Positions 1,432 through 19,123 of a stretch of DNA of 21,589 bases are shown one piece after another (position 1 is the stretch's first letter; every line of letters starts with the position of its first letter). Location of the stretch: contig CAZECW010000047.1 in NCBI GenBank assembly GCA_964510585.1, forward strand, positions 1-21,589. Reading direction: 5' to 3'. The position numbers and the translations under genes were made by a program. Below the pieces are notes generated by a model. The model saw nothing but the letters and a program-made list of their open reading frames with translations, was not told the DNA's origin and searched no databases. The DNA is from an uncultured archaeon (GTDB lineage Archaea > Asgardarchaeota > Jordiarchaeia > Jordiarchaeales > Jordiarchaeaceae).

Positions 1432-3000
1432 TTAGCTGCTTTCTTCGAGTTTTATTCGGAAGTGTTGGTCGTATGCATTTTTGATTCTGGATGCGGTGTT
1501 GGAGTCGATTATTCCCCGTTTCTCCAGTAGGTTCATTCCTTTTGAGAATTCTTGGGCGATTTGGGGGTTTAGAAGGTAGTTATAGTTTCTGAGCCCCTCC
1601 TCGAAATTCTTGTTCGCCCTACCCTTCTCAATTTCTTCTTGGTAGTTTCGGGCAAGTTTGCTGATTTCTTTTAGTCTTACTATCCGCATCTTATCATTGA
1701 TGGTTACGGGCGATACCACTACGTAGGTTTTTTTGGCCTTTCTGCGATATTCTGCCACATATAATGGTATGAAAATTAGGAAGGGTTGGTTGCTTGGCAG
1801 GCGTTTCAGAGGGATAGTGATTTCCTCGTACTCTATTATGGCTTTCTCGGTTTTTTCCTTCCATGAGTGGAAGGCCGTGATTAGCTGTTCTCTTAATGCT
1901 TCAGCCTTTTCTACGGCTTTTTCGTATTCATCTATTTTGGAAGCCAGCTCTTCGAGTTTTCTCTCTAGTTCCGATTGGATTTCCTTCTCTGTTCTTTGGT
2001 ACTCCTCTTGGATTCTCTTTATTTCTCTTTCCTTGTCAGAGTAGAATTTGTCCACCTCTCTTTTGTAGGCTATGTATTCTCTCTCTAGGTTTTCCAATAA
2101 ATCCTGTAGTTCGTCGACAGCGTCCCTGAAGGCCCCTATTTCGTCAAGCATTTCGTACACGTCTTTTGACTCGACCATTTTCCAAACAGTGTCTGCATGT
2201 TCCGAAATTTTGTTCACTAGTCTTTCTAGGCTTGCTCCGGGTCGGGGCATCTTTTTGTCAAAAGTGGACTCGGAAATCTTGGAAATTTGCCTATCCCTCT
2301 TCTCTTTTTCAGCCTCTAATTTTTCTTGTGATTCTGATTTAAGCTCCGCCTCCTTTTCCTTGTAGTCGCTTTTCATGGCTTTGAACTGTTCAACAGCCTC
2401 CTTGATTCTGGAGTCTATGATTTCTAGAGTTGCTTCATGTTTCTGCTTCTCTCTCTGGATAAGGGTACTGCTGGGGAACCACTCAAGGCAGCTTTCATCT
2501 AGAAACTCCTTATTAATTGTGTATGAAGGCTCAATTACCTCAAACTGCTTCAAATTAGTCCACTCCTCAATCTTGGGTAGAAGCTCCCTAAGCTCAGAAG
2601 CGAAATCTTCACCCAGCCATCCTCTCAATTTTACACCACTAGGCTTCGACTGATAATCAGACACCGCCCTCCTCACATACCTTTCAAGCTCCGAAACAAA
2701 GGATAAAAAGTCTCCCTTACGAAGTTCCTCGGGAACACCAAAATCCAGTATCTGGAGATTAATCTTTGAAGATGAAAATTCACTGCCGTCAAAAACCAGA
2801 GCCTTACTCTCATCAAGGGGGTGAACCCAGAGAGGACAGAAAAACCTAGAAATAGAGGCCAAATCTTCCTCCTTTTTTCTCTCCTCCTCAATTAAAAGCA
2901 GAGCCACCGCTATTTCCACACTGTCCACATCCTTGGAAGTTACCAAACTTCCAGAGGAGGGCAACAAAAAAGGAACCGCAAGAATTCTCTCAAACTTCAT
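1432..3000 (-). CDS. Long coiled-coil protein with globular N- and C-terminal domains (~522 aa)
   Basis: The ORF track starts at 3021 (GTG), but ATG at 3000 is preceded by SD-like GGAAGGTGG and is preferred. The central ~220 aa is E/K/Q-rich heptad sequence interrupted by 'KKMPRPGAS'. No Walker A/B motif and no TM segment. Confidence 0.85.
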   Translation of the reverse strand: MKFERILAVPFLLPSSGSLVTSKDVDSVEIAVALLLIEEERKKEEDLASISRFFCPLWVHPLDESKALVFDGSEFSSSKINLQILDFGVPEELRKGDFLSFVSELERYVRRAVSDYQSKPSGVKLRGWLGEDFASELRELLPKIEEWTNLKQFEVIEPSYTINKEFLDESCLEWFPSSTLIQREKQKHEATLEIIDSRIKEAVEQFKAMKSDYKEKEAELKSESQEKLEAEKEKRDRQISKISESTFDKKMPRPGASLERLVNKISEHADTVWKMVESKDVYEMLDEIGAFRDAVDELQDLLENLEREYIAYKREVDKFYSDKEREIKRIQEEYQRTEKEIQSELERKLEELASKIDEYEKAVEKAEALREQLITAFHSWKEKTEKAIIEYEEITIPLKRLPSNQPFLIFIPLYVAEYRRKAKKTYVVVSPVTINDKMRIVRLKEISKLARNYQEEIEKGRANKNFEEGLRNYNYLLNPQIAQEFSKGMNLLEKRGIIDSNTASRIKNAYDQHFRIKLEESS

Positions 3001-3133
3001 AACGCCACCTTCCAACACCAATCAAACACGGAAATCCAAATCAAAAATACAAAACAATCCGAAATCCACCAAACATTTTCCGGATAGAAAAATAAGGTCT
3101 TCAAACTGTGTTCCAAAAGGGGATATAGTACAA

Positions 3134-3415
3134 TCATTGGCTTATCTCTATGTTTTTTATGTTTTCGGTTAAGTCATGGTCTATGATTATTTTGAGGGCT
3201 CCCTCAGGCGAGTCTATGGTTGCCTTCCTACCAACAAATTTTACCCGGCAATTGTTAACCACAACCTGGTTCGCAACCTCTTCAGTAATTATGCGCTCCT
3301 CTCTTTTGCCTGACTCTTCTCCAGACACCATTATTATCATTACCTTCAAAGCATCACTTTCAACGGTCACATCAACCTTCTGAACCCCTTCATAAGTAGT
3401 TTTCTTTCTAACCAT
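3134..3415 (-). CDS. Small beta-rich hypothetical protein (93 aa)
   Basis: ATG with upstream GGAGATG SD; alternating hydrophobic/polar strands (VDVTVE, VMIIMV, CRVKFVG, LKIII); same strand as and upstream of the coiled-coil gene; ends ...NIEISQ. Confidence 0.75.
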   Translation of the reverse strand: MVRKKTTYEGVQKVDVTVESDALKVMIIMVSGEESGKREERIITEEVANQVVVNNCRVKFVGRKATIDSPEGALKIIIDHDLTENIKNIEISQ

Positions 3416-3711: not shown

Positions 3712-5247
3712 TTGATTTTCCTATTGACAGACGAAGACAAAATTGGCGGAAACACGGAGGTGGAACCTGATACACACCAAAAAACTGTGAGTTTCTATGT
3801 TGTTGATGCTCACACCCATATCGGTAGGGAGGAGGTTCTGGAATATGGAAAAAAGGCCTACAGAACCAATAATCCAAAGCTCACCCTCGACTTCTATCAA
3901 AGGCTCCAATTTGAAGTTGCGAAAGCTATGAAAGTAAATTCTGGCAAGTACTGCTTTGTTCCCGCTGAGCCCTTCACAAAGCCTCCCCCACTGCTGAGTA
4001 TGCTTCAAGAGAACACTCCGGGGGTAAGAAGCATAGGCTGGACAGTTGACAAGTTTGTAGCCTTCCCCTTCAACGACACCACAGCCTACAATACTAGCCC
4101 TAGCTTCCAGCTCCCCAACGAAATGATTCTGAGCCGAGCAAGAGTTCTCCCCTACTCCCTGAGAATGCTGGGCTTTGTAAGAGTCGATCCCCGAGAGGGA
4201 GAAAAGGCAATCGAAGAAATAACGAGATGCAGTCAGCAAGGAGCCAGAGGATTAAAGCTTCACCCAATTTCCCAAAAATTTCTGAGCGAAGTCACCTCGG
4301 AAAATGTGAGGAAAGTTGTGGTCGCAGCAGCCAGGAATGGTCTTCCAGTGCTCTTCGACTGCAGGTATTACAGCACCGCTGAAGACATTTACCATTTAAC
4401 ACAGGAGGTTAGGGAGGAGCTAGGAGGCAGCGACTTCGCCATAATAGTGGGACATTCGGGAATGGAGTATACCAGGGACGAGCTCTACGAATTTTTCAAA
4501 GATCCCTGCATCTATGCTGAAACCTCGGGAGTGAGAGGATACGATGTTCCCCTCTTTTTCAAAAAGATGAAGAAATGCGTCCCCAACTGGTCGAGCAAAA
4601 TTTTATTCGGAACAGACTACAATTATTTCAGCCTCCCCCAAGCCACAGACTTCCTCTCCTACCTCTTCACAAGGGAGTTCCGCGACGAAATAGGAGGCAC
4701 ACCCCAAGATATACAACGCATTTTAGGAGGAAACCTTCTATCAATAATTAAACCATTCATAGTATCGCCCATTGAAGGAAAGGAAACCCCAACAGATGGA
4801 AAACTTTACCGATTAGCCTCCGAGTTCGCTGATGCGTTCCTCAAAACCTTATCTCTGAGAATATCCTTCCTTATCGGAGAAAAAAGGCTAACCTACATTA
4901 CTTACGAGGTCTTACTCTCCTCAAATTTCGACGTGGACTATGAAAGCTTCATTCTAAACCTGTCCTTCGGTAAGGTCAAAACACCACAAATCAATGAAGT
5001 CATAGTGGTTTCTAAGAGTAGTGATGACGCACGAGAGTATTTGAACGTATGCAACGTAACAGGGAAATTATTCCAAATAGAGGAAGACCTCAAGGAAGAA
5101 ACACCACAGAAAACAATACTAAACAATAAACTCTACACAAAGCTAATACACGAAACAGTCTTCAGCGGCAACCAAGAGGAAATCAAAACCAGAGAAGAAG
5201 CGGAAAAACTTCCAAAAATCCTAATCCCTCAACACACAGATGGGTAA
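3712..5247 (+). CDS. Amidohydrolase-superfamily TIM-barrel metallohydrolase (COG2159/Amidohydro_2-like) with C-terminal extension
   Basis: TTG start with AGGAG SD about 8 nt upstream. Motifs VDAHTHIG (HxH), GFVRVDP, GARGLKLHP, IIVGHSG, ETSG and ILFGTDY. About 160 extra residues follow the barrel. Confidence 0.9.
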   Translation: MIFLLTDEDKIGGNTEVEPDTHQKTVSFYVVDAHTHIGREEVLEYGKKAYRTNNPKLTLDFYQRLQFEVAKAMKVNSGKYCFVPAEPFTKPPPLLSMLQENTPGVRSIGWTVDKFVAFPFNDTTAYNTSPSFQLPNEMILSRARVLPYSLRMLGFVRVDPREGEKAIEEITRCSQQGARGLKLHPISQKFLSEVTSENVRKVVVAAARNGLPVLFDCRYYSTAEDIYHLTQEVREELGGSDFAIIVGHSGMEYTRDELYEFFKDPCIYAETSGVRGYDVPLFFKKMKKCVPNWSSKILFGTDYNYFSLPQATDFLSYLFTREFRDEIGGTPQDIQRILGGNLLSIIKPFIVSPIEGKETPTDGKLYRLASEFADAFLKTLSLRISFLIGEKRLTYITYEVLLSSNFDVDYESFILNLSFGKVKTPQINEVIVVSKSSDDAREYLNVCNVTGKLFQIEEDLKEETPQKTILNNKLYTKLIHETVFSGNQEEIKTREEAEKLPKILIPQHTDG

Positions 5248-5983: not shown

Positions 5984-6805
5984 ATGAAATGGGAAGATAC
6001 TGCACTAGAAATTCTCAGGTCCGAGTTCAATAACCGAATTTTTAGAGTAGACGATGTGTTTAAGCTCCTAAACGAGAAAAAAGGCTACTCCAGGGGAACA
6101 GCGTATCGTATTCTCCATGACCTTTCCAAGAAGGGATTAATAGAAAGATTGGGCAGAGGCATCTATAAGGTTTTGAAAACCGTTGAATTCAAAGAAAGTG
6201 TGATGGTGTCAGCTAGTGTGAGCGTTAACCTTATTCCAGGTTCACTAACTAAAGCGAGAGATTTGCTTAGAAATAAGGGAATCGAGTTCATGATTACCGG
6301 AGGCTCCTTACTCTATCGCTTTTTCCACCATTTACCCAAGCGTCTCATCCACTTAATATATGTTAAAAAAGGAGCGGGTGAAGTGGCTGTCACACTGCTA
6401 AGGGAAGCAGAAATAAGAGCCTTGCTAAACCCAAGCCGAAGCGAGATCAACATCGCACTGGAAAATTTTCCCGAGAGAGACATTTTCGTAATAAGAGAGT
6501 TCACGGAGCTTCCGGGCAACATTGATGGAAATGCGAGTATTGAGCGGGCTTTAGTGGATTTATATTTTGAGAGTACAAGGAGGAGAATACCTTTTTCTGA
6601 AGAAGAGGCTGGTCGAATTCTCTTCAAAGTATTGAGAACCGAACCAATAAATTTTAGCCATCTGCTCATGCTGGCAGCCAGAAGAGGAATAAGAAAAGAA
6701 ATGGAGGCAATAGCAAAGTTTGTTCACCCCGAGCTTCCCATAAAAGGCAAAAGCGAAAACAAATATGTAAAAAAAGTTGTCAAAGCAATGGAAGTATTGC
6801 GATGA
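5984..6805 (+). CDS. abiEi: Type IV TA antitoxin, AbiEi family (N-terminal wHTH)
   Basis: N-terminal winged HTH ending 'GLIERLGRGIYKV' (AbiEi signature L.R+.RG+Y); C-terminal 'SIERALVDLY' (T/S.ER.LVD); ATGA overlap with the downstream nucleotidyltransferase. Confidence 0.85.
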   Translation: MKWEDTALEILRSEFNNRIFRVDDVFKLLNEKKGYSRGTAYRILHDLSKKGLIERLGRGIYKVLKTVEFKESVMVSASVSVNLIPGSLTKARDLLRNKGIEFMITGGSLLYRFFHHLPKRLIHLIYVKKGAGEVAVTLLREAEIRALLNPSRSEINIALENFPERDIFVIREFTELPGNIDGNASIERALVDLYFESTRRRIPFSEEEAGRILFKVLRTEPINFSHLLMLAARRGIRKEMEAIAKFVHPELPIKGKSENKYVKKVVKAMEVLR

Positions 6806-7950
6806 GTCTGATCCACAATGCAAAATACTTTACCCAAGAAGAAATTTTGGAAAGAGCAAGAAAATACGAATTCCCAAATCCATTAGCTGTTGAAATATTT
6901 CTATGGGACTGCGAAATTGCTGCGCAACTTCAAGACAAATGCGTGGATATGGTGCTTAAAGGAGGAACAGCTGCACAGCTACATCTACCCTTAGAAAAAC
7001 AGAGAGGAAGTGTTGACATCGACCTAGCCACTCCTTTAAGTAAAGTTGATATCGCTGAAGTTGTTCAAAAAATAAGCCGATCCCTAAAAGGGAACGTTAA
7101 GTTTGAGTTACATAAACCGAAGAAACCTACCCCTAAGCTTCCACTCGTAACCTATTTTGCAAAAGCGCCTTCGAAAACAGACCTATCGAGAAAAGAGTTG
7201 GAAATAAAAATTGACATTTTCCTCAAGACCCCTAACTTGCCTACAATAGTGCTTAATAACGTTCAGACTTTTGCAGTAGATGTCGAAAGAATGAAATGTT
7301 TCACGGTTGGAACCCTTATCGGCGATAAGCTTCTCACACTTGCAGAAGAAAGCATAGGCATGACGCTTAAGGCAGATTATCCAAAGCAAATCTACGACAT
7401 AGATGCACTCCTAGAAATATGTGAAATTTCTAAGAACACTATCAATGACATAATTGAATCTGTCAAGACACTCACAAAACTTGAGGCTTCCATTAGAAAC
7501 ATGAAAATCACTCCAACAGAAGCCCTTCACGATGTCATAAAGACAATGGATAAGTATTCGCTGATGAACACAAGCGGTGGCGATGCAAACATCAAAAAGA
7601 ACATAGATGCATTTCAACAATTTTTCGTCAACAAGAATCAAAGAAAACCATTCTACAGTTGGAGTTCCAAGTCCCTAAAAATCAAGTTTCTCGCTACAAT
7701 AATCGGCGAATGCATCGAAAACAAATTAACTGAATCCAACGCTGCCGAAGTTATTACTCAGTCCAAAAGCATTGCAGCCAGACTCAATCAAATTTCTGGA
7801 AAGGACGTTATCGAGGTAAGGAAAAAACTCTTAGACCTTGCCCAAACAAAAATTCCCTATTTTAGGGAAATGAAAGGCAAGACGCTTGACAGAGTCTTTT
7901 GGCAAATCGTAACATTGGAAAACCTTGAAGACATACAATCTATACTATGA
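6802..7950 (+). CDS. abiEii: Type IV TA toxin, AbiEii/AbiGii nucleotidyltransferase
   Basis: Motifs VLKGGTA, RGSVDIDL, DKL and KQIYDI are characteristic of AbiEii-like polymerase-beta NTases; translationally coupled to the antitoxin (ATGA at 6802-6805). Confidence 0.88.
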   Translation: MSLIHNAKYFTQEEILERARKYEFPNPLAVEIFLWDCEIAAQLQDKCVDMVLKGGTAAQLHLPLEKQRGSVDIDLATPLSKVDIAEVVQKISRSLKGNVKFELHKPKKPTPKLPLVTYFAKAPSKTDLSRKELEIKIDIFLKTPNLPTIVLNNVQTFAVDVERMKCFTVGTLIGDKLLTLAEESIGMTLKADYPKQIYDIDALLEICEISKNTINDIIESVKTLTKLEASIRNMKITPTEALHDVIKTMDKYSLMNTSGGDANIKKNIDAFQQFFVNKNQRKPFYSWSSKSLKIKFLATIIGECIENKLTESNAAEVITQSKSIAARLNQISGKDVIEVRKKLLDLAQTKIPYFREMKGKTLDRVFWQIVTLENLEDIQSIL

Positions 7951-8440: not shown

Positions 8441-9769
8441 ATGTCAACGATACAATTAGAAATTATAAATGCTGGTGCAGCTGACGGCAGAGCTTACATG
8501 AATAAGAGTGACATGCAATCAATAGGCGTAGACGACTTTGATGTAGTAGTTTTTATCAACAAGTATGAGGATTGGGGAGCAGCCCAAGTCATCTCAAGCA
8601 ACGATTGCGCTCCAGGATACATAATGGTCGACGGCTCGGTTCTCGACTCCGCAAACGTTTCAGAAGGAGACACCGTCACAGTGAAGAGGAAGGAAGCGGT
8701 GGGTGGAGTAACAAGTGTTCAAATAGGTGTGGAGCCCATGGCTGGACAAGCCACCGAGGAAGTTGTAGTCTGGGTCGCCGACCACGTTGACGACCTGGCA
8801 CGCCTCCTAATGAAGAGACCCATATACAAGAATCTGGAAATAGATTGGAGAGATGCGGAGTGCGGCCACATCAAGCTCCGAGTACAGAAAACACAACCAG
8901 AACTATACTCGGAGGATGTAGCCATAATTGATCCAACTGGGAGAGAAGTAACATTCGAAATTGTTCCCGCAGTGGACATGACGTTCAACGCCATCCTCAT
9001 GATAGATGTTTCTGGAAGCATGCAGAAGCAGGATATGAGAGTCATAAACGCTGATGGGGCAGTTGAGGGACTGAGGAGGGGACTTAAGGAAACACCGCAG
9101 CTAAAAGACTTCATAGTCACCATGGAGGAAGGTGCCATGGTGAGCAGAATAAAGAGTGCGGCTCTTGCCACTCTCCTCTACCTCTCACTCAAAATAGGCA
9201 GAGGTTGGGGAGAAAACGTTCAGGTCATAACCTTTGCGGACACAGCTGAGCCGCTAAGAGTGACAGATGCTGATGGAAACGTGAGCACAGTAATAAAATG
9301 CACTGGTGAAAGCAAGGACATTGGCCTCGAAACAATAGCGAACTATATAATAGAGAAGTGCAAGGAAGGAAGCGGACTAACATACATGAGTGGAGCGCTC
9401 AAATTAGCCTCAGAACTAGCACAGGGATTCCCTCCAAACCCAAAAACAGGCGTGCCATCCCCAGTAATGATGGTGCTCCTGAGCGACGGGATGCCCAACA
9501 AGGGAGACCCAGACCAAGGCATACCAGTGAATCCCATTCCAGCAATAAAGAAGTTCCTCTCGGGACAGTCTGGCTGGGTACTCTACTGCGTAGGGCTGGG
9601 TGAAGCGGACGCTCAACTAATGCAAAAAATGGCGGAGCTTGGAAGGGGTGAATTTCTTAAGGCTACAGATTTCGGTCAACTATGGAAGTGGTACGACACC
9701 CTGGCGCAAAGGTTTGCCATCGCTGTTAAAACCACTCCCTCAACTTTTGTAGCTGAAGAACCCTCATAA
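8441..9769 (+). CDS. Cdc48-N-like (double-psi barrel plus CDC48_2-like) domain fused to a vWA domain
   Basis: Residues 1-175 align by eye to the N-domain of the Cdc48 in this window (GRAYMNKSDMQSIGVDDFDVV..PGYIMVDG..ANVSEGDTVTVKR..LARLLMKRPI vs [54 protein letters not shown]). The vWA part has MIDAS motifs DVSGS (D189, nt 9005), GLTYM and LLSDG. AGGTG SD upstream. Confidence 0.88.
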   Translation: MSTIQLEIINAGAADGRAYMNKSDMQSIGVDDFDVVVFINKYEDWGAAQVISSNDCAPGYIMVDGSVLDSANVSEGDTVTVKRKEAVGGVTSVQIGVEPMAGQATEEVVVWVADHVDDLARLLMKRPIYKNLEIDWRDAECGHIKLRVQKTQPELYSEDVAIIDPTGREVTFEIVPAVDMTFNAILMIDVSGSMQKQDMRVINADGAVEGLRRGLKETPQLKDFIVTMEEGAMVSRIKSAALATLLYLSLKIGRGWGENVQVITFADTAEPLRVTDADGNVSTVIKCTGESKDIGLETIANYIIEKCKEGSGLTYMSGALKLASELAQGFPPNPKTGVPSPVMMVLLSDGMPNKGDPDQGIPVNPIPAIKKFLSGQSGWVLYCVGLGEADAQLMQKMAELGRGEFLKATDFGQLWKWYDTLAQRFAIAVKTTPSTFVAEEPS

Positions 9770-9787: not shown

Positions 9788-12700
9788 TTAACTCGGTTCT
9801 CTTGGTAGCACAACTATTTCCACTTTTTCCTTTTTTATCATGTGGCTTGGGATAGGTTGACTATTTTCGGTTGCCCTGACTTCTAGAAGGTACCTTGTAC
9901 GGTAGGGAACTCTGGGAACCCTCCAAGAGAAGGGGCCATAATTCTTGATTTCTTCCTTCTGGTTAATGTTTATGTTCTTTATTTCTTCTTGTGCCTCTTC
10001 GCCTATAGCGTAGACTTGAACCTTGAAGTCTTTACCTCCATATTTTTTCTTTACCACTACTTCGAAGTTCACTTTATCGTCGCTTTTCACAATGCTTGGA
10101 ATGTGAGGTGATCCCATAATTTTTACTTCTAGTGGAGTTAGCTGCGGCCTTGAAACTTGAAGTTTGGGAGAGGAGACACATTCCTCAACCTTACCTTCCA
10201 AGCTGTAGGAAAGCTTGGCGATTAGGAAACACTCCCTATCCGCAGTATAAAGAGGTGGAGTAAAGGTTCCATCTATTTGGCTCTGCTCTCCAGGATCAAG
10301 CTTTAAACGAGTACCCTCAATATGTACCTCTTTTGAGTTTATGGGTAGAAATTTGAAGTCGACTGCTACGGAAATTTTTTTCTCCGCATTGTTTTTAACC
10401 CTGAGCAAATATTTTGTGGATTCCCCGGAACTCAAATTTCCCTGAATTAGGGGTGGAGTTACATCGATGGGGGAAGCCTGCTGAACTACTGTAACGGAAG
10501 CCTTCTTTGAACCAATATTTACTCCCCCCACATTTAGACTAGCTTCCAGAGAAGCCCTCTTCACACCGGAAGGAATGCCTCTGAGTCTCATAGGCATTGG
10601 CAAAAGATAGACTCCATCCTCCCGAATAGTGTAAAGGTAAGATTCCCTCTGAATACTTGCTTCTTGGGAGGAAAACTCAAGGTCAACGGAAACAGTAACA
10701 GGTTCAAGCACATATCTGGCATCAACCTGAAGCAGGGGAAGAATTCTGACACCATACATTACAATCTGGGGAACATTAAGAATCCCACGCAATCCAAACA
10801 TTTTGTTAACGCCTGGCGACCTTACAGAAATCTCTCCAGACTCAGACTTCTCAACAACCATTCCCCTATGGATAACCTCAGCCCTAAGCTTAAACCTTCT
10901 AGCCTTCGGAAGCCCCTCCATCTTAAACCTATACCCAATTCTCTTTTTATCAAAAAGTTTAACCATCTTGTGACCTACAAGAACCTCATCCCCATCCATG
11001 GGACAATAATAAAGATTCAGCCAGAAAGAACCAGTAACATCCAAATTAAGATTTTTCAAATCAATATCAAAATTGCAGCCAGAACCCAGAACCAGCTCCT
11101 TATCTTTAGAAGTAACGTAGAGAGAAACCCTAGGCGGCTCAACAACAGAAACCTCAACAGCCTTAGACTCCCTCACCCTCTTAACCGCCGGACACGTGGG
11201 CACTGTTACAGGTGCTACTTCAGCCACCTTAACCACTTCAGCACTCCTCTTCCCGTACTTTTCAGCCATGGGCCTGCTGACTGTCATCTTTGAAGTAACC
11301 TTCACTTCGGACGCCCTCGTTTCAGAAACCTGTTTGACAGAGGGCGGCTTCGCCTCTGAAACTCTCTTTGATTCAATGGTCCTCTCTACAGTTGGCTTAC
11401 TTGTAACGTGTGTTTTCAATTTGGCATCCTTTCTCGATGTCCTTACGTGGGCCACTGGCTTGGCTTCCTTTCTTTCAGGTCTGATCCTTCTTGGGGAAGC
11501 TTTCTTCACTGTGGGTGTGACTACCCTCAATTTTAGTGTGGGCTCCGCCCTTTCAGTTTGATATTTCTGGGGTGGGGAGCGTATCTGCGGTTGGGGTTGA
11601 ACCTTCCCCTTTGGCTGGGGTACTGTCCTAGGTGAAGGCGTAGCTAATTCGGGTTTTATCCTTTGAACTACTTTTGGGGCATGTGTTTCTGTGGTGAGTT
11701 TTGTTATCACCTTAACTTCTGGTTTCTTGGGTTCTGGTGCTGGTGCTTCTTTCGGTATAATGATTATGTTTGGGGTTTCGTATTCGCCTACAATTCGCCC
11801 CTTGTAGAGAACCTGCACTCTTACTCTTAGATTGGCTTCTTTTGCAATTTCTCCTCCTACTTTTATACTGTGAGGGACTTTTACTTCCTTAAGGTTGGTT
11901 AGACTCTTCTCCAACTGAAGTTTTAGAGCTCCGCTTGGAAACCTGTGGAAAATGCGCACCTGATATTTTCCAGAGAATTGGGGGGTGGTGTTTGCCACTT
12001 GGAAACTCATCTCATATGTTTTTCCTTCCTCAAATTTCTTGTAGACAGAAATGGGCTTAATTGAAATGTTGGGTGTGGCAATTACTCTAAAGGAGCCGGT
12101 TTTTATCTTGGCTAACTCGTTTTTCTCACTGTCACGAACAGTGAATTGGAGGAAGCAACTCTTTGGCTTAGAGAAGGCCCCAAAAGGCACCATAAGAGGA
12201 ATACTGCTTTCTTTAAAAATTGATTCTTTACCAGGCTTGAGCGAAACTTCTTTTACCGCTGTGCTAATAACGGCTTCCTCGTCACCCTCTTTGGATAGAA
12301 CCTTTCCAAGAATTGTGACATGAGTTTCAGAACTATTATTTGAAGATAAGCTAAGCTGGAAGGGAATACGCTCCTCAGCAATAACCTGTTTAGCTCCTAC
12401 GGAGGCAGCCCCCTTCACAGAGAAGGCGGACAAGGGCGCAGGGATGGGCGCGGTGACGCCTGTGGCTACTGGTTGGGCGGTGGATGTAGGCTTAGCAATA
12501 GCTTCCCTTACTGGCAACTCGGGAGCTCCGAAGAGGCTTGTTATGGGATCCTCATTGAGACTCGTGCAAAAGTCCTCGGTAATCTTAATTAGGTTTGATG
12601 TAACCCTCCTAAACTCGCCGCCTGAGGAGTGATAAAGGTATAGGAGATAGTCTGCTGGTGAGCAGGGAGGCTCAAGCTGGCTGGTTCCCATAACAGAGGC

Positions 12701-13903
12701 TAAAACTGGCTTGAGATACTCTTGGAAACCTAGCTCCTCAACCTCGCTCTGAATAAACTTGAGCATGCTTTGGACAGCTTCAAAAAGCTTCGTGTTCGGC
12801 TTCTCAGTGTCGGGGTCAAGATTATAATATTTCGCGAATTGCTTATTTGAATTGTTCAGACCATCGTCTCCAAAGAACTTGCCGAAAAGTCCAAACTCAA
12901 TAGCCTTATCCCTATTATCCACCAGAACCTCGGAGCTCACATTTGGCAGCCTCTGACCAGACTTGGCGATCTTCACAGCCTTGTAGGCTAGGGCCTGGAT
13001 AATTGCAACCAGGGCCAATCTACGCGAAACACTAAACTGACTATCAAAAACCCTAATCTCAATCGTTCCATAGTCGGTAAACGGAAACATATCCACAAAC
13101 CGGTCGTCGGGAGGCTCCCTGCTCACAATTTTGTCAAACTGTCTCCTGTCAAGCCTCTCCAGAAAGGGAATGTAGTGATCTTTGTCTGCAGGGCCAGTCT
13201 GCCCCTTGTTAAACTTCAGCCTAAGACTCCTCACATTATTCTGGCCAAGAATGGTAACCTTAGGCATTTTCTTAACCTTAACGTTACCCGTAGGCCCCTC
13301 ATTCATAAATGGAGAGTTCACGGAAAGCGCAATCAAGTGGGGTAGAAAACAACGCAAAACGTTATACGCAGCAAGCCTATCCCTGCTGTCAGGCATACCG
13401 ATATGATAGTGGTCGCCGAAGGTGACACCACTACGGTACTCAGCCTCCTTAGGATTAAAGCCAATCGATATAATTCCATAACCGCTTGGCAGAGAGTCTA
13501 GGGCAACCCGGTAAAGAGACTTAATCCACCAACCCAGCTCCTCCATAGTTTCACAGGGAGGAGTCACCAGCTCAAGAATCCAAGTAACCTGACTTATGTT
13601 GGGATCCGGCCCAAAAGCGTAAATCTCAACATTCCTACCCCCACGTATCCTATAGCTCACAGTAATGTAGGGCAACCTCCGCCCCTGACGCTCCTTTTCC
13701 ACACGCCCAACACGAACAAGCCTCTCCCTCACAATACTTGGAGCCCCCTCAAGAACCTTTTTCTCCAGCATGGCGGCCGCACGCTTAAGCAAGTGATCCC
13801 AAACCCTTATTAGAGACTGCCCCTGAAGCAGACTGCCACCCTGATCCACAATCTGAATCTCAATCTCGACACCCTGAGTAAAAGGAAGACGTTTACCATC
13901 CAT
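9788..13903 (-). CDS. Multidomain protein: GCS2/YbdK-like carboxylate-amine ligase, predicted beta-sandwich domains and a basic low-complexity linker (1371 aa)
   Basis: The N-terminal ~450 aa carry GCS2 motifs FTQGVEIEIQIVD, ILELVTPPC, TFGDHYHIG, LPHLIALSVNSPF and GTIEIRVFD. These are followed by a P/T/A linker, ~230 aa of beta-strand pattern, a ~205-aa P/K/R/S/T-rich linker and ~450 aa of beta-strand pattern. No signal peptide or TM segment. Confidence 0.88.
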   Translation of the reverse strand: MDGKRLPFTQGVEIEIQIVDQGGSLLQGQSLIRVWDHLLKRAAAMLEKKVLEGAPSIVRERLVRVGRVEKERQGRRLPYITVSYRIRGGRNVEIYAFGPDPNISQVTWILELVTPPCETMEELGWWIKSLYRVALDSLPSGYGIISIGFNPKEAEYRSGVTFGDHYHIGMPDSRDRLAAYNVLRCFLPHLIALSVNSPFMNEGPTGNVKVKKMPKVTILGQNNVRSLRLKFNKGQTGPADKDHYIPFLERLDRRQFDKIVSREPPDDRFVDMFPFTDYGTIEIRVFDSQFSVSRRLALVAIIQALAYKAVKIAKSGQRLPNVSSEVLVDNRDKAIEFGLFGKFFGDDGLNNSNKQFAKYYNLDPDTEKPNTKLFEAVQSMLKFIQSEVEELGFQEYLKPVLASVMGTSQLEPPCSPADYLLYLYHSSGGEFRRVTSNLIKITEDFCTSLNEDPITSLFGAPELPVREAIAKPTSTAQPVATGVTAPIPAPLSAFSVKGAASVGAKQVIAEERIPFQLSLSSNNSSETHVTILGKVLSKEGDEEAVISTAVKEVSLKPGKESIFKESSIPLMVPFGAFSKPKSCFLQFTVRDSEKNELAKIKTGSFRVIATPNISIKPISVYKKFEEGKTYEMSFQVANTTPQFSGKYQVRIFHRFPSGALKLQLEKSLTNLKEVKVPHSIKVGGEIAKEANLRVRVQVLYKGRIVGEYETPNIIIIPKEAPAPEPKKPEVKVITKLTTETHAPKVVQRIKPELATPSPRTVPQPKGKVQPQPQIRSPPQKYQTERAEPTLKLRVVTPTVKKASPRRIRPERKEAKPVAHVRTSRKDAKLKTHVTSKPTVERTIESKRVSEAKPPSVKQVSETRASEVKVTSKMTVSRPMAEKYGKRSAEVVKVAEVAPVTVPTCPAVKRVRESKAVEVSVVEPPRVSLYVTSKDKELVLGSGCNFDIDLKNLNLDVTGSFWLNLYYCPMDGDEVLVGHKMVKLFDKKRIGYRFKMEGLPKARRFKLRAEVIHRGMVVEKSESGEISVRSPGVNKMFGLRGILNVPQIVMYGVRILPLLQVDARYVLEPVTVSVDLEFSSQEASIQRESYLYTIREDGVYLLPMPMRLRGIPSGVKRASLEASLNVGGVNIGSKKASVTVVQQASPIDVTPPLIQGNLSSGESTKYLLRVKNNAEKKISVAVDFKFLPINSKEVHIEGTRLKLDPGEQSQIDGTFTPPLYTADRECFLIAKLSYSLEGKVEECVSSPKLQVSRPQLTPLEVKIMGSPHIPSIVKSDDKVNFEVVVKKKYGGKDFKVQVYAIGEEAQEEIKNININQKEEIKNYGPFSWRVPRVPYRTRYLLEVRATENSQPIPSHMIKKEKVEIVVLPREPS

Positions 13904-14232: not shown

Positions 14233-14958
14233 TTAGTCCTTTTCGCGGAGGCGTAGCACACATTTATTGTCCTTCTTTGAGGTTTCTATTTTTATTATTC
14301 CCCTTTCCTCTGAGTCCTTCAGCGCCTTCATTAATTTCTCTTCCCTCACATCTAGCAATTCGGAAATCTTGGAGAGTGGACACTCTCCTCCAGATTCCAG
14401 TAGGATTCGCAGTGAGGAGACTGCGTCGGGAAGAAGGTCAAAGTCCTCAATCACTCGGTCCATTTCCCGGAAAATCATCTGTGAAATTTGAATGAGCTGC
14501 TTTTCCTCCTCCCGCAGAGCCACCAACTCCTCCTCAACACTTTTAAGCAATTCCACACCCTTCCTCAGCTTTTCCAAGGGACTCTGCGCCTTCTCCAAAT
14601 TGTAAATCTCCTTAAGAAACTTGTTTAATTTACCCTTGCCCGTCTCAACCACGTCCGGCAGCATATCCAGAATCTCTCTGAAAGTGTTAGGCGCAATACT
14701 AAAAGACAGAAACAGTGAAGCATCAACATAGTAGTAGGTTCTCTCAGGACCAATGGGGCTCTCAACAATCCTTTTCTTAACAATGCCCTTCTCTTCAAGA
14801 AGAGCCAAATGCTGGGAAACTGCCCTAGGAGTAATTTTAAGCTGCGTAGCTATCTCAAAAGGATATCGGCTTCCCTTGGTAAGCAGCTGAAGAATCCTAC
14901 GCCTAGTGGGATTACCCAAAATAAACATTAAATCCTCAAGAGATATTTCCTTCTCCAT
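14233..14958 (-). CDS. ArsR-family wHTH heat-shock regulator, Phr/HSR1-like (COG1777)
   Basis: LGNPTRRRILQLLTK..AVSQHLALLEEKGIV..GPERTYY closely follows the Pyrococcus Phr pattern; central coiled-coil and a second C-terminal wHTH-like segment; adjacent to hsp20 and cdc48 as in the Archaeoglobus HSR1 locus. Confidence 0.85.
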   Translation of the reverse strand: MEKEISLEDLMFILGNPTRRRILQLLTKGSRYPFEIATQLKITPRAVSQHLALLEEKGIVKKRIVESPIGPERTYYYVDASLFLSFSIAPNTFREILDMLPDVVETGKGKLNKFLKEIYNLEKAQSPLEKLRKGVELLKSVEEELVALREEEKQLIQISQMIFREMDRVIEDFDLLPDAVSSLRILLESGGECPLSKISELLDVREEKLMKALKDSEERGIIKIETSKKDNKCVLRLREKD

Positions 14959-15021: not shown

Positions 15022-17223
15022 CTACTGCTTGTTCTCTGCAAAGCTGCAGTAAAGTTTTTCTAGCTGTTCTCTCCTCGAGCGTGACATAGGCTTAACTTTT
15101 GTTAGCGCCTCCTCTAAGTGTTCCATTGTAATCTTGCAGTCTATCTTTTCCTCCTTGTCACTGAGGTCTTTGCCGTTCTTAGCAATGTACTCTCTTATGG
15201 CAGCCATTACAGCCTCGTTGCAAACCGCAGCTATGTCAGCACCAGAATATCCGTCGGTCTTCTCAGCCAGCTTTTCAATGTTAACATTTCCGGCAAGGGG
15301 CTTGCCTCGTAGATGCACCTCGAATATCTTCTTTCTTGTTTCAAAATCGGGAAGAGGAATGTAAATCAGCTGGTCAAATCTTCCCGGCCTCAGAAGCGCT
15401 GGGTCAATTATGTCAGGCCTGTTTGAAGCTGCAATTACTGTTACACCCTTAAGTTCCTCAAGACCGTCAAGCTCCGTCAATATTTGACTTATAACTCTTT
15501 CAGTCACATGTGAGTCTCCGAAGTCACCTCCCCTCACCGGGGTGATTGAGTCAATTTCGTCAAAGAACACTATGCATGGAGCTGCCTGCCTAGCCTTCCT
15601 GAATGTTTCACGCACAGCCTTCTCAGATTCACCCACCCATTTTGATAGGAACTCGGGGCCCTTCACAGAGATGAAGTTTGCTTCACTCTCGTGGGCTACT
15701 GCCTTTGCCAGCAGTGTTTTTCCAGTTCCCGGTGGCCCATATAGGAGTATTCCTTTTGGTGGGTTAGCTTTCATGTGTCTGAAGAGGTTGGGGTATTTAA
15801 GTGGCCACTCCACGGCTTCGATTAGTTGCTTTTTGACTTCTTCTAGTCCTCCTATGTCTTCCCAAGTGACGTTTGGCACCTCAACAAAGACTTCCCTCAG
15901 TGCTGATGGTTCAATGTCCCTGAGTGCATTTTCAAAGTCTTCCCTTGTAACCTGTATCTTATCCAGAACCTCAGCAGGTATGGTTTCCGCTTCCAAATCT
16001 ATTTCTGGCAGTATTCTTCTTAGGGCTATCATAGCCGCCTCCTTACAGAGTGCCTCTATGTCTGCGCCTACGAAGCCATGTGTAACTCTGGCAAGCTCGT
16101 CCAAGTTAACGTCCTTTGCCAGCGGCATTCCCCTCGTGTGTATTTGGAATATTGCTCTTCTGCCTTCCTGGTTCGGTATGCCGATTTCGATTTCCCTGTC
16201 GAACCTGCCTCCCCGTCTGAGAGCTGGGTCTATTGCGTTTGGCCTGTTGGTCGCAGCAATCACTATGACTTTTCCGCGGGATTTGAGGCCATCCATAAGC
16301 GTTAGGAGCTGTGAAACCACTCTCCTCTCAACGTCGCCTGTTACCTCTTCCCTTTTTGGTGCTATGGAGTCCAGTTCATCTATGAATATTATGCTTGGCG
16401 CATTCTTCTCGGCTTCCTCAAATATTTCTCTCAGTCTGCTCTCACTCTCACCGTAGAATTTGCTCATTATTTCTGGTCCACTTATGCTGTAGAAGTTGGC
16501 GTTTGTCTCATTTGCCACCGCTTTAGCTAGCAATGTTTTACCTGTTCCGGGTGGTCCATAGAGGAGAACTCCCTTGGGTGGCTCTATTCCCAGCTTGCTG
16601 AAAAGTTCTGGGTGGTTAAGCGGTAGCTCTATCATCTCTCTAACCTTTCTGATTTCCTCGTCCAGCCCTCCAATGTCTTCGTATGATACTCTGGGAACCT
16701 TTTTGGCCTCGATTTCCTCTGCTGGTTTTTCGCTTATTCTTACCTCTGTTTCGCTGGTCATAATCACAGTGTCAGATTTGGGAGTGAAGCTTGTGACCAT
16801 GAGGACGATTTTGCCGCTTAGGGCTGCGATTTCAACATAGTCTCCAATGCTTATTACCCGACCCTCAAGGAGCCTTCTGAGATAGTCTTCAGCTCCCGTG
16901 ATTCTTATAGCTAGGGTGGGGGCAAAAGTGATGCTGGTGGCTGGCTTTGCTTCAACCTTTCTGATTTCCACCTTGTCATCAAGCGAAGTTCCAGCATTTC
17001 TTCTTGTGGCACCGTCTATTCTGATTATTCCCTTGCCAGTGTCTTCTGGATACCCGGGCCAGGCTAGGGCCGCGGTTTTCCTTTTTCCAACTATTTCCAC
17101 TGCGTCGCCTGTTCTTATGTCCAGTTGGCTTGCAATTTTGGGATCAATGCGGATGATGTTTCTTCCCACATCTCTGGGCTTTGCTTCTGCCACTCTCACA
17201 ATTATGCTTTTTTGATTGGTCAT
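15022..17223 (-). CDS. cdc48: Cdc48/VAT type II AAA+ ATPase (733 aa)
   Basis: N-domain plus two AAA modules, each with GPPGTGKT; Walker B motifs IIFIDELD and IVFFDEID; pore loops KFYG and KWVG; SRH motifs ALRRGGRFD and ALLRPGRFD; GGTGG SD. Confidence 0.98.
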
Positions 17224-17297: not shown

Positions 17298-17801
17298 TTA
17301 TTTTACCTCGACTTCAAACTCGTCGGATTCCAGCGGTTCCTTAAACTTTACTCTAACTTCAAGGATTCCGTTCTTGTACTCTGCACTGGCTGATTTGGGG
17401 TCGATTTCCCGCTCTGTGTCCAATTCCTTGTAGTACTTTTTCTTTTCTGACTCTGCAGATATGGTCACTTTCCTCTTTGTGGCCTTGACTTTGATGTTTT
17501 CCTTGGAGACTCCCGGCAGTTCTGCAACTATTATCAGGATTCCGGCTTCCTTGTCTATGTGGGTTTCCGTGTATGGGGTCTGCACTGCTCCGTCAACTTG
17601 TTCGCCCCTGTTGGGGTTTGTGTTTCCGAACTCTGTGATTACTGGTTTGGCGTCTTGGTCTATGTGGATTGAGACGCCGTAGTGTAGTGGTGTTTCTTCG
17701 GTGTCTGGTTCGATCGCTGTTCTGAATAGGCGGTCGAATATGAACTCTTGTTCTCTTAATGTTTTTCTTAGTTCCTTGAAGATGTCGTCGAATCCGTTCA
17801 T
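17298..17801 (-). CDS. hsp20: Archaeal small heat-shock protein Hsp20 (~167 aa)
   Basis: Alpha-crystallin motifs AELPGVSKENI and AEYKNGILEV, plus the archaeal 'YGVSIHI..KPVITEFGN' segment. ATG 17801 with GAGGTG SD is preferred over the ORF-track start at 17810. Confidence 0.95.
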   Translation of the reverse strand: MNGFDDIFKELRKTLREQEFIFDRLFRTAIEPDTEETPLHYGVSIHIDQDAKPVITEFGNTNPNRGEQVDGAVQTPYTETHIDKEAGILIIVAELPGVSKENIKVKATKRKVTISAESEKKKYYKELDTEREIDPKSASAEYKNGILEVRVKFKEPLESDEFEVEVK

Positions 17802-17845
17802 GTTTAACACCTCGCTGGTGTTTTATTCAATGTAGTAAACTTTAT

Positions 17846-18296: not shown

Positions 18297-18809
18297 TCAA
18301 AAGCTGTCTAATGCTTTGATTATTTTGGTATAAAGTTCGGTGGAGCACCTCCACCCTTCCCTGATCATTTCATTTAGCTTATCTATAAATTCTTCCTTTG
18401 TTATTATTGCCTTCCTAAGAAAGCAAAACAATAAATAGATTGTTCCATGATTAGGTATTCTCTCTAGGTCAGCCATCGCACGGGATTCCTCATCATCCAT
18501 TAATGCGATTGCGTGTAACTCTTTGGCTAAACTTAGTACTTCAGCATCCGCACAATGTATCTTAGGATTTTCCAAAAGGTGTTTAGTAAATCCGTCATCG
18601 GATGGCGACTTGATTTTAATCACATTTTCTCTTATAAGTTTATCAACCTTAAATGCATCAGCCACCCCTAACTCTTTTCCCTTAGTTACAACCTCGTCAT
18701 AAACCGACTGGGGAATATACTTCTTCTCTGGAAGTTCTTTAATATGTTCTATGAGGCTTACTTTAGATAGGTAGATTAGAGGTGAAGCATTGAAAACTAG
18801 AGTGGCCAC
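18297..18809 (-). CDS. PIN-domain protein (DUF3368/COG2405), putative TA toxin
   Basis: LVFNASPLIYL, IPQSVYDEV, ADAEVLSLA, ALMDD and HGTIYLL follow the DUF3368 PIN pattern; the GTG start overlaps the antitoxin TAG by 1 nt (TAGTG). Confidence 0.88.
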   Translation of the reverse strand: MATLVFNASPLIYLSKVSLIEHIKELPEKKYIPQSVYDEVVTKGKELGVADAFKVDKLIRENVIKIKSPSDDGFTKHLLENPKIHCADAEVLSLAKELHAIALMDDEESRAMADLERIPNHGTIYLLFCFLRKAIITKEEFIDKLNEMIREGWRCSTELYTKIIKALDSF

Positions 18810-19111
18810 TATGGAGCCTTCTTTATGTCTTCTTCAATCATTTTTTCGGATTTTATCCAGACCACATCTTCCTTCCTGACTAAATCCGCAAACTCCCACA
18901 CAGACATACCAGCAATTTCCGCCGCTTTAACATAAGACACTCTCCCCTCCCTTAACAGCTTCAAGGCTCTTCCTTCCTTCCATCTTTTCAACCCTTCAGC
19001 CAATAGTTTCCTAATAGAGGCGGATTTTTCTAAAGACTCCTCACGCATAAACATTTCCAAGTCACGTGCCATCTCTTTAGGGATCCTGGAAGAAATAGTT
19101 ATTTCAGTCAT
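18809..19111 (-). CDS. UPF0175-family antitoxin (RHH-like N-terminus plus HTH), 100 aa
   Basis: Starts MTEITISSRIPKE at ATG 19111 with GGTGGA SD; the ORF-track extension to 19207 is unlikely. 'ALKLLREGRVSYVKAAEIAGMSVWEF' is the UPF0175 signature. Confidence 0.88.
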   Translation of the reverse strand: MTEITISSRIPKEMARDLEMFMREESLEKSASIRKLLAEGLKRWKEGRALKLLREGRVSYVKAAEIAGMSVWEFADLVRKEDVVWIKSEKMIEEDIKKAP

Positions 19112-19123
19112 TATTTTTCCACC

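Follow-up and report, generated by a model that had tools for sequence, protein, structure and literature searches.

What does an archaeon do with a carboxylate-amine ligase that is mostly something other than ligase? We analysed a 21,589-nucleotide stretch of DNA (hereafter, the window) from an uncultured hot-spring archaeon of the Asgard family Jordiarchaeaceae. An uninterrupted open frame on its minus strand (9788..13903) encodes a carboxylate-amine ligase of the GCS2/YbdK type in a long form of 1371 aa. The preliminary description called YbdK enzymes usually single-domain proteins of ~370 aa, and the solved YbdK chains, at 372-396 aa, agree with this; thus, ~900 aa of the 1371-aa protein are extra. 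The preliminary description considered this ligase on its own and thereby missed the main fact about it: Asgard archaea conserve a module of three proteins, in which the ligase serves as catalytic core alongside a Cdc48N-vWA protein and an Amidohydro_2 enzyme.

The long gene is not an artefact. Full-length homologues with 29-96% identity were present in Asgard MAGs, and long forms gave 119 matches in genome contigs, closed chromosomes included, from more than 100 Asgard assemblies. In an independent hot-spring run (X4), the whole gene lay on one 5818-nt contig, with ~97% identity. The ligase contigs from runs X1 and X2 both broke within the repetitive linker, and each run bridged the other's break. 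The long-form matches, the closed chromosomes and the spanning X4 contig rule out a chimeric assembly of two genes, which the preliminary description had named as a possible undoing of its reading; the long architecture is kept in homologues and is no accident of one assembly. The family is mainly confined to Asgard archaea. The protein has no hydrophobic N-terminus, and no 19-residue window exceeded 1.46 on the Kyte-Doolittle scale, a profile consistent with the cytoplasmic location and lack of a signal peptide proposed earlier.

The ligase domain (aa 5-460; 12524..13891, minus strand) has a GS/GCS fold with a C-terminal helical extension, as indicated by the PF04107 match and VIA-align. Pfam PF04107 (GCS2) scored 38.8 bits, above its cut-off of 21 (E 8.9e-10), making the protein a member of this family. 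NCBIfam YbdK-type models and the YbdK structures 1r8g and 1tt4 in the PDB matched as well, all within aa 7-350, so the GCS2 motifs do fall in the first ~450 aa, as had been noted. In the AlphaFold2 model of aa 1-760 (pLDDT 87.6), the ligase domain aligned to 1tt4 with a VIA-align Z of 34.6 (rmsd 2.9, 333 aa aligned), and Foldseek gave target-normalised TM values of 0.75-0.77 for 1tt4 and 1r8g. VIA-align Z was 26.9 for the plant glutamate-cysteine ligase (GCL) 2gwc and 17.6 for the yeast GCL 3ig5. Seven residues (E13, E15, E111, H165, H167, E282 and R284) were invariant in all covering rows of a 48-sequence alignment; E13/E15, E111, H165/H167 and E282/R284 align to the E-x-E motif, third Glu, H-x-H motif and E-x-R motif of YbdK, which serve metal and ATP. 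This conservation strongly supports an intact active site, and fold and motifs together predict an active, ATP-dependent, amide-forming carboxylate-amine ligase of the YbdK/GCS2 fold.

That the nearest structures and sequence families are YbdK and the glutamate-cysteine ligases favours a role in a small-molecule pathway. The ligase would then make a gamma-glutamyl-type or other amide metabolite, such as a thiol precursor or a polyamine or amine conjugate, with the Amidohydro_2 enzyme acting before or after it, the vWA protein serving as a regulatory or assembly subunit, and the appended Ig arrays doing nothing more than oligomerising or localising the enzyme. We consider such a pathway possible but doubtful. 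The best NCBIfam score was 76.9 bits, where the cut-off is 371 (NF010039), and TIGR02050 gave 74.9 against 176.4. These scores are far under every YbdK/GshA equivalog cut-off, so the ligase does not count among the orthologues of known small-molecule enzymes.

Beyond the ligase domain, a short disordered hinge (aa 465-491; 12431..12511, minus strand; pLDDT <50 in the AlphaFold2 model) leads to a tandem pair of beta-sandwich (Ig/CARDB-like) domains (domains 1-2, aa about 495-720; 11744..12421, minus strand; pLDDT ~90). This pair matched GH2 Ig domains, transglutaminase C-terminal barrels and a CARDB domain with VIA-align Z values of 10-12. A basic, disordered arm rich in proline, lysine and valine follows (aa ~727-924; 11132..11725, minus strand), with pLDDT <50 from aa 727. 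Its sequence is of low complexity, and aa 750-925 contain 41 K+R against 17 D+E, for a net charge of +24. The protein ends in four beta-sandwich domains that form one compact array (aa 925-1371; 9791..11131, minus strand; pLDDT 91.4, pTM 0.83). The best ESM Atlas shape match of this array was the C-terminus of the Thorarchaeota GCS2 family (TM 0.57 over 343 aa). CARDB/S-layer-type proteins came next, and its PDB matches were generic Ig/MG arrays. The two beta-sandwich blocks and the disordered linker between them had already been proposed from the sequence, and the proposed blocks (equivalent to aa 495-717 and 924-1371) coincide with the boundaries in the models, which place the first block at aa 496-716 and the second at 925-1371. 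The models thus support genuine folded beta-sandwich arrays joined by a flexible arm.

Across the family, it is these appended parts that vary. Basic arms were also seen in Loki, Heimdall and Hod homologues. Other relatives append zinc ribbons, HhH motifs or extensions of 2000-3000 residues to the ligase domain, and one Asgard family has only ~100 extra residues. This well-populated family has a short ligase (558-588 aa) that lacks Ig arrays and whose gene nevertheless adjoins that of the hydrolase, which indicates that the appended domains are dispensable for the core chemistry and counts in favour of a small-molecule pathway. A 613-632-aa protein encoded upstream of the short-form ligase matched no Pfam family and was rejected as a vWA homologue (hhalign probability 0.4%).

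We defined the trio as genes for a GCS2 ligase with a ~460-aa domain, a Cdc48N-vWA protein and a long Amidohydro_2 enzyme within ~10 kb. In the window, the ligase gene (9788-13903) is accompanied on the plus strand by genes for a 442-aa protein with a Cdc48N-like head and a vWA domain with an intact MIDAS (8441..9769; Pfam CDC48_N and VWA) and for a 511-aa Amidohydro_2 metal-dependent enzyme with a ~170-aa C-terminal extension (3712..5247; PF04909). The source genome has a second full trio on contig C196 and, elsewhere, an 892-aa Ami-Cdc48N-vWA fusion. Linkage of the trio extends across the Jord/Frey, Loki, Sigyn, Heimdall, Hod, Hermod and Thor lineages. When we clustered ORFs of at least 60 aa from 82 ligase loci, many of them cut by contig ends, only two neighbour families crossed lineages: the vWA partner, present in 54/82 loci, and the Amidohydro_2 partner, present in 40/82 and often directly adjacent on the same strand. 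Hod-type loci form a compact same-strand operon in the order Ami-ligase-vWA, and more distant ligase relatives retain the same neighbours. A vWA unit and a ligase are naturally fused in the protein P0180 (hhalign probability 100%, E 1.9e-43), and the trees of the three families sort two paralogous sets alike. These observations strongly support the conclusion that the three genes are inherited, duplicated and occasionally fused together. Gene linkage, the fusion and a predicted complex all place the ligase in a multi-protein setting. The earlier view of the appended domains as a scaffold or substrate-recruiting apparatus of a macromolecule-modifying ligase is supported in part: the folded arrays, their conservation in homologues and this setting hold, and recruitment of a substrate by those domains would be a plausible role.

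Other genes of the window are less widely shared. A 529-aa coiled-coil-like protein (1432-3021, minus strand; weak SMC-type coiled-coil matches) and a 93-aa ORF (3134-3415, minus strand) have homologues that adjoin the trio only in two Jord/Frey-type loci (L001 and L002), and neither companion within 1432..3415 matched a Pfam family. Two toxin-antitoxin pairs are present, AbiEi/AbiEii (5984-7950) and UPF0175/DUF3368 (18297-19207); a UPF0175/DUF3368 pair also lies upstream of a Loki ligase homologue.

In the vWA partner, the MIDAS residues D189xS191xS193, T314 and D349 were invariant. A single-sequence PDB search with this protein returned no match, and a profile search returned generic VWA/DPBB entries only. 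Complex prediction with this partner and the ligase domain gave ipSAE values of 0.77, 0.76 and 0.82 in three runs, whereas the best of three controls gave 0.00; partner pLDDT was at least 81, and at least 35% of contacts agreed between runs. In the calibration of the tool, 58/80 solved complexes and 2/110 mismatched pairs reached the ipSAE mark, counts that apply only roughly to our custom alignments. In the predicted complex, the Cdc48N head docks on parts of the ligase domain that are specific to this family (hairpin 207-221, loop 227-246 and helix 324-343), and hence on the domain itself rather than on the Ig arrays. The predicted interface involves the most conserved stretches of the head, and the modelled docking leaves the MIDAS site unoccupied. 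It would also place the head next to an invariant loop near the ligase active site, as for a modifier subunit, which again fits a metabolic enzyme.

In the Amidohydro_2 partner, D32-H34-x-H36, K182-x-H184, H248 and D302 were invariant. A single-sequence PDB search returned no match and a profile search only generic Amidohydro_2 entries; in ESM Atlas feature searches, either partner retrieved nothing beyond its own Asgard clusters and generic members of its family. The nearest solved enzymes by sequence were Amidohydro_2 decarboxylases and hydrolases, with weak E-values from 0.003 upward, and the partner may therefore not hydrolyse amides at all. Its relatives of known function act on small molecules, and ligase-hydrolase pairs are common in gamma-glutamyl metabolism; both points favour a metabolite as the product. 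By contrast, metabolic enzymes seldom come with vWA/MIDAS proteins, Ig arrays, basic disordered arms or giant fusions, and no further pathway genes were conserved near the ligase in the 82 loci.

The Cdc48 N-type domain of the vWA partner brings pupylation-like tagging to mind, in which the ligase would attach a small protein tag and a neighbouring Cdc48 would unfold the tagged protein, with the Cdc48N-vWA protein as adaptor. In the window, the genes immediately upstream of the ligase include hsp20, cdc48 and one for a Phr-like regulator, and a wide VIA search placed the ligase domain in the PafA/Dop superfamily (4bjr and 9cku, Z 19.6-20.2). Nevertheless, we judge this quite improbable. The ligase is nearer to YbdK. 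PafA and Dop were absent among the best 50 Foldseek PDB matches of the model, and no Pup-ligase Pfam family matched at E up to 1, the only matches being GCS2, ASH and Cep192_D3. No Pup-like, ubiquitin-like or other tag-like ORF of at least 60 aa was conserved with the module among the 82 clustered loci, and prediction has the Cdc48N-like head binding the ligase rather than an ATPase. The hsp20-cdc48-phr genes adjoin the ligase in no other locus examined (cdc48 is absent from the gene tables of L001-L006, L010 and L011), and they match a known type of archaeal heat-shock operon. We therefore dropped a functional tie between them and the ligase.

The toxin-antitoxin pairs that flank or interrupt the locus, the patchy spread of the ligase among Asgard families and the DNA-modification, TIR and SLATT genes around the P0180 fusion could instead point to conflict or defence. 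The trio would then be a mobile vWA-centred system, or the GCS2 domain a hydrolase or deamidase, as in Dop, or a mere ATP sensor. We regard this as very unlikely. Toxin-antitoxin genes are common in archaeal genomes, and in the families that have it, the ligase is near-universal and mostly single-copy (5/5, 4/4, 43/45, 40/49, 10/12 and 3/3). Every ligase residue is intact, and stable synteny with housekeeping genes together with congruent family trees fits vertical inheritance.

The explanation that we find best as a whole, at close to but short of an even chance, is that the ligase of the trio joins a carboxylate to an amine on a macromolecular target and that the hydrolase edits the product. 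The Cdc48N head would bind the ligase domain and leave the MIDAS free; the target, which is most likely to be a protein or an anionic structure in the cell, would be held or reached by the free MIDAS, the flexible basic arm and the six Ig-like domains. There the ligase would form a gamma-glutamyl or isopeptide-type bond, which the metal hydrolase would remove or edit. The appended domains would set the site of action, not the catalytic mechanism. A macromolecular substrate is plausible given that relatives attach the ligase domain to Ig arrays, zinc ribbons, HhH motifs or very long extensions, that the basic arm recurs in several lineages and that arm charge tracks the acidity of the C-terminal tail of the vWA partner. 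To our knowledge, small-molecule enzymes rarely carry such extensions. Against this explanation, all characterised GCS2 members that we know of make small molecules, no tag-like ORF is conserved, one short family lacks Ig arrays, and the charge co-variation was seen in five independent clades only. More ambitiously, the trio might, throughout Asgard archaea, write a covalent amide mark on proteins or a cellular polymer in an ATP-dependent manner and erase it again, as a functional analogue of pupylation or glutamylation based on a YbdK-type ligase: the vWA MIDAS would select carboxylate targets, the Ig arrays and arm would position the enzyme on a cellular structure, and the amidohydrolase would erase the mark. 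We consider this extension speculative and rather unlikely.

No known prokaryotes are more closely related to eukaryotes than Asgard archaea, whose lineage-wide conserved genes without known function are few and closely watched. If modification of proteins or cellular structures proves true, the trio would count as a new post-translational system, found in the lineage behind the ubiquitin-type and glutamylation-type regulation of eukaryotes; if the metabolite reading does, the module implies a so far unknown compound peculiar to Asgard archaea. The enzyme module itself is well conserved; its catalytic sites are intact, a subunit interface is predicted and gene fusions occur naturally. It is apparently undescribed: we found no published description of the ligase architecture or the trio in a search that lay outside the amidoligase survey of Iyer et al. 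2009 (PMC3268129). A paper on a Klebsiella fimbria that names amidoligases concerns an ATP-grasp enzyme and is irrelevant here.

Among known systems, YbdK/GCS2 enzymes (1r8g and 1tt4; plant GCL 2gwc) share with the Asgard ligase both the fold and the E-x-E/E/H-x-H/E-x-R catalytic set, and hence presumably the same acyl-phosphate chemistry. The ligase domain of the Asgard enzyme exceeds YbdK by ~90 aa and has a hairpin, a loop and a helical extension specific to its family; also unlike YbdK, the enzyme has its appended residues and obligate-looking vWA and hydrolase partners. PafA and Dop belong to the same superfamily, and pupylation is the precedent for this fold joining the carboxylate of one protein to a lysine of another, a bond that a paired enzyme reverses (PMC2588565). 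The Asgard ligase differs from them in lacking Pup-ligase sequence membership, a Pup-like gene and conserved linkage to a proteasome or unfoldase, and its candidate eraser is an amidohydrolase TIM-barrel, not a Dop-type ligase paralogue. Eukaryotic glutamate-cysteine ligase is a heterodimer of a GS-fold catalytic subunit and a non-catalytic modifier subunit. The holoenzyme offers an analogy for the predicted ligase-vWA complex, although the Cdc48N-vWA partner is unrelated to the aldo-keto-reductase-like modifier subunit and the likeness may not extend to glutathione chemistry. Transglutaminases (factor XIII, TG2 and TG3) likewise place tandem beta-barrels after a catalytic core that forms Glu/Gln-Lys amide bonds, and their C-terminal barrels match the Ig pair at aa 495-720, a generic beta-sandwich likeness only. 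Their core is a papain-like thiol enzyme that works without ATP, unrelated in fold and mechanism to the Asgard ligase.

A single long open frame on the minus strand of the window (9788-13903) encodes the 1371-aa ligase. Its Pfam GCS2 match reached 38.8 bits (cut-off 21), and several NCBIfam YbdK/GshA models and the solved YbdK chains 1r8g and 1tt4 matched it as well. All of these matches, made through three motif blocks, were confined to the first ~350 residues, in line with the preliminary description, which had placed the catalytic GCS2 motifs in the N-terminal part only. We folded two pieces of the protein with homologue alignments. The model of aa 1-760 (pLDDT 87.6) comprised the ligase domain (aa 5-460), a disordered hinge (aa 465-491), two beta-sandwich domains (aa 496-716) and disorder from aa 727, and that of aa 925-1371 (pLDDT 91.4, pTM 0.83) comprised four beta-sandwich domains that form a single packed unit. 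The two beta-sandwich blocks proposed earlier from nucleotide positions correspond to aa 495-717 and 924-1371, agreeing with the model boundaries, and the long disordered linker proposed between them was recovered as a proline/lysine/valine/threonine-rich arm, with 41 basic versus 17 acidic residues over aa 750-925. Scanning of the sequence revealed neither a signal-like N-terminus nor a transmembrane-grade hydrophobic window, as expected from the claim that a signal peptide is absent.

The preliminary description had also named a chimeric assembly as an explanation that would undo its reading. An assembly artefact was ruled out: full-length relatives (29-96% identity, 1219-1416 aa) occur in many Asgard MAGs, so that the architecture is conserved in homologues, and an independent 2023 run contains the entire 4.3-kb stretch on a single contig at ~97% identity. 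Scanning one genome per species yielded 119 ligase relatives; the 80 loci kept, which include closed chromosomes, were all labelled Asgard except for three, probable mis-binnings. The public runs with the ligase stretch are hot-spring metagenomes, save one subsurface run with a small share. In the two possible source runs, contig breaks fall in the low-complexity linker, each being bridged by the other run. In the linker region (window 11365-11368), the contig of the independent 2023 run (X4) lacks one nucleotide and, 3 nt away, carries an extra one, a compensating frame change altering one or two residues.

Exhaustive structural comparison of the ligase domain ranked YbdK-like 1tt4 first (Z 34.6, rmsd 2.9, 333 aa), followed by plant GCL 2gwc (Z 26.9), GshF (Z 21.3), Dop 9cku (Z 20.2), PafA 4bjr (Z 19.6), GshA 3nzt and 1v4g (Z 19.3 and 17.6, respectively) and glutamine synthetases (Z about 15). 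The superfamily frame for this fold was set by a 2008 pupylation paper (PMC2588565). Residues E13, E15, E111, H165, H167, E282 and R284 correspond to the catalytic motifs of YbdK and do not vary among 48 diverse homologues, and the window protein is therefore expected to be an active ATP-dependent carboxylate-amine ligase; beside this invariance, a conflict function, or a repurposing of the domain for something other than ligation, seems very improbable. Because its NCBIfam scores are far under the equivalog cut-offs, the protein is no orthologue of YbdK or GshA. When 1.84 billion cluster representatives were searched, only 80 clusters were found at E < 1e-30, most of them, among the matches listed, covering nearly the whole ~460-aa domain; beyond these 80, scores fell to ordinary ~370-aa GCS2 proteins matching the motif blocks only. 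The window protein is thus a member of a separate subfamily, which has invariant motifs of its own at about aa 97-118, 227-246 and 264-291.

A Foldseek-type check of the modelled segments bore out the beta-sandwich (Ig-like) fold of the appended parts, with generic matches only for the six domains (GH2 Ig, transglutaminase barrels, CARDB, complement MG arrays, hydin and TRAPPII). The best shape match of the C-terminal array was the C-terminus of the family's Thorarchaeota members (TM 0.57, 343 aa), which makes the domain arrangement older than sequence similarity implies. For the third C-terminal beta-sandwich (window 10217-10453, aa 1151-1228), whose Foldseek list also contains the hydin and TRAPPII Ig-like domains, we noted weak, sub-threshold Pfam matches to the eukaryotic domains ASH (E 1e-3) and Cep192_D3 (E 7e-3). 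The appended parts diverge far more quickly than the ligase domain does: relative to protein P0019, for instance, the ligase domain is 63% identical and the C-terminal array only 22%. The appendage is the part that varies across the subfamily, being reduced to ~100 extra residues in one well-sampled Asgard family (558-588 aa), containing zinc ribbons in 1240-aa forms and reaching 2000-3000 extra residues, with HhH motifs, in giant forms. In giants of 2200-3800 aa (P0153, P0159, P0167, P0172 and L011 5965-14274), this ligase domain is located close to the C-terminus; HhH motifs are present in one of them, and the gene for the L011 protein has a vWA gene on either side (two in total).

The preliminary description of this gene dealt with the ligase and its extra domains; the extra domains are real, but the surroundings revealed two partners. 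A 442-aa Cdc48N-vWA protein is encoded at 8441-9769 (+), with 19 bp between the end of its gene and the stop codon of the ligase, and a 511-aa Amidohydro_2 hydrolase is encoded at 3712-5247 (+). A vWA homologue lies within ~10 kb of the ligase in 9 out of 9 loci from Jord, Loki, Thor, Heimdall and more distant relatives, and the hydrolase is present in 7 of these 9. Our own HMMs, run on 80 species-representative loci, indicated an arrangement typical of each lineage: the ligase, then convergent vWA and hydrolase genes in Jord/Frey; the hydrolase directly upstream on the same strand and the vWA gene ~7 kb upstream in Heimdall (~1090-aa forms); a compact same-strand operon, hydrolase-ligase-vWA, in Hod/Hermod (~990-aa forms); and vWA and hydrolase genes ~7 kb downstream in Thor. 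All-against-all clustering of neighbouring ORFs showed that only the vWA (54/82 loci) and hydrolase (40/82) families cross lineages, many of the loci counted ending at contig edges. The MIDAS residues of the vWA partner (D-x-S-x-S, T and D) and the hydrolase motifs (D-x-H-x-H, K-x-H, H and D) are intact and invariant.

A second full trio, in the same arrangement, lies on another contig of the same genome, its ligase being 1188 aa long and 41% identical. In maximum-likelihood trees of the three families, built from 26 complete trios, the same major groups recurred and each paralogous ligase was placed with its own partners. The similarity of the trees alone could be explained by relatedness; what adds information is that, inside one genome, the two paralogous sets sort in a matching way.

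Several other genes were noted around these loci. A ~520-aa coiled-coil-like protein and a ~90-aa ORF (window 1432-3415, -; L001 8456-9982 and 16815-17087; L002 17202-19173) occur beside the trio only in Jord/Frey-type loci and may be lineage-specific extra components. A third Cdc48N-vWA paralogue of the same genome (427 aa; L093 7623-10339, contig C11) is transcribed divergently from the gene for a Gtr1/RagA-family GTPase with an HhH domain. In one Asgard family, a short ligase of 558-583 aa without Ig arrays (L094 7366-12574, L095 7896-13024, L096 8056-13198) sits in a tight same-strand operon between an unassigned protein of 613-632 aa and the hydrolase, and no vWA gene was found within the 20-kb stretches of these loci.

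Through structure prediction, ligase aa 1-470 and the vWA partner were predicted to dock through the Cdc48N-like head of the partner, with ipSAE values of 0.77, 0.76 and 0.82 in three runs and 0.00 for the best of three controls. In the calibration of the tool, the mark was reached by 58/80 solved complexes and 2/110 mismatched pairs, counts that hold roughly here because we used our own alignments. The partner had pLDDT of at least 81, and the runs shared at least 35% of contacts. To our knowledge, there is no solved GCS2-Cdc48N complex, and recall of a memorised structure is therefore unlikely. The predicted interface involves ligase residues 205-209, 219-222, 233, 238-243, 328-343 and 371-372 and partner residues 42-45, 68-77, 99-103 and 130-145, the latter being the most conserved stretches of the head, and leaves the vWA/MIDAS face free. 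A natural fusion also joins the two: in the 962-aa metagenomic protein P0180, the N-terminus matches the whole partner family (hhalign probability 100%, E 1.9e-43) and the ligase domain comes next. P0180 is encoded at the end of a ~100-kb metagenomic contig (L098 8001-10889), among Mom, TGT-like, QueC, QueF, several N6/N4 methyltransferase, TIR and SLATT genes, surroundings that may be a virus or defence island. The same genome as the window encodes an 892-aa hydrolase-family and Cdc48N-vWA fusion with a degenerate MIDAS motif (L092 9140-11818, contig C65), its gene lying between one for SPFH/Band7 and one for a zf-AN1 plus M50 protease, and a similar fusion is found in a genome of another Asgard family of the sample.

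Genes for hsp20 (17298-17810, -), a two-ring Cdc48 AAA ATPase (15022-17223, -) and a Phr-like wHTH heat-shock regulator (14233-14958, -; NF053602, E 7e-18) lie directly upstream of the ligase and look like a classical archaeal heat-shock unit, comparable to the established Phr/HSR1 operon. This unit did not adjoin the ligase in any other locus read for gene content; we ruled it out as part of the module, its adjacency being specific to this genome among those loci. The 329-bp spacer before the ligase, with T-runs and a TATA-like box ~58 nt ahead of the start codon, suggests a separate promoter. An AbiEi antitoxin/AbiEii nucleotidyltransferase toxin pair (5984-7950, +) separates the hydrolase gene from the vWA gene, taking up the greater part of the 3.2 kb that lie between them. 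In L001 and L002, both close relatives, these two genes adjoin each other, and the AbiE pair looks like a mobile toxin-antitoxin pair inserted into the module. A UPF0175 and DUF3368 (PIN-like) pair (18297-19207, -) is homologous to one just upstream of the long ligase in Loki-type L006 (8987-9833), probably by chance because toxin-antitoxin genes are abundant.

What is established here is the domain architecture, the integrity of the active sites, the conservation and duplication of the trio and the occurrence of natural fusions; how the system works can be proposed only tentatively. The enzyme complex would act on a macromolecular target, held by the free MIDAS site, the Ig arrays and the basic arm, and the hydrolase would edit or reverse the ligase product. 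Protein ligands of vWA domains are typically bound through an acidic side chain. We give this macromolecular-target reading slightly less than an even chance. It is favoured by the kinds of domains fused to the ligase across the subfamily and by co-variation, at the clade level, of arm charge (the largest net charge in any 60-aa window) with the net charge of the last 30 residues of the partner. Arm and tail values were +25 and -16.5 for Heimdall, +20 and -6 for Hod, +15 and -0.6 for Jord set A, +7 and -1 for Thor, and +6 and 0 for Jord set B, five independent clades only. The co-variation (window 9791-11725; partner tails L026-L034 and L044) is most pronounced in the Heimdall-type sets, where the partner tails consist almost entirely of Glu and Asp. 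Against a macromolecular target, the Ig-less short ligase still keeps the hydrolase, and the nearest solved relatives of the hydrolase by sequence are small-molecule Amidohydro_2 decarboxylases and hydrolases. A pathway for small molecules in which the vWA protein is a regulatory subunit would accommodate both observations; we regard it as unlikely, though worth serious consideration. Also counting against a macromolecular target, no conserved tag gene was found among the clustered neighbouring ORFs (at least 60 aa) of 82 loci, and a true Pup-like tagging and unfolding system, for all the structural likeness of the ligase domain to PafA and Dop, is improbable.

The ligase was found in 109 of the 201 genomes of the phylum sample (E <= 1e-30). 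It was near-universal in some families (5/5, 4/4, 43/45, 40/49, 10/12 and 3/3) and was not found in other families searched (0/24 and 0/14). MAGs with Hel, Heimdall, Kor and Thermoplasmatota labels contain relatives that are shorter or have other fusions. Our literature search, which did not extend to the 2009 amidoligase survey, returned no published account of the ligase architecture or the trio. The three-protein system appears to be undescribed, and the ligase itself is a known kind of enzyme in a new architecture and gene context.
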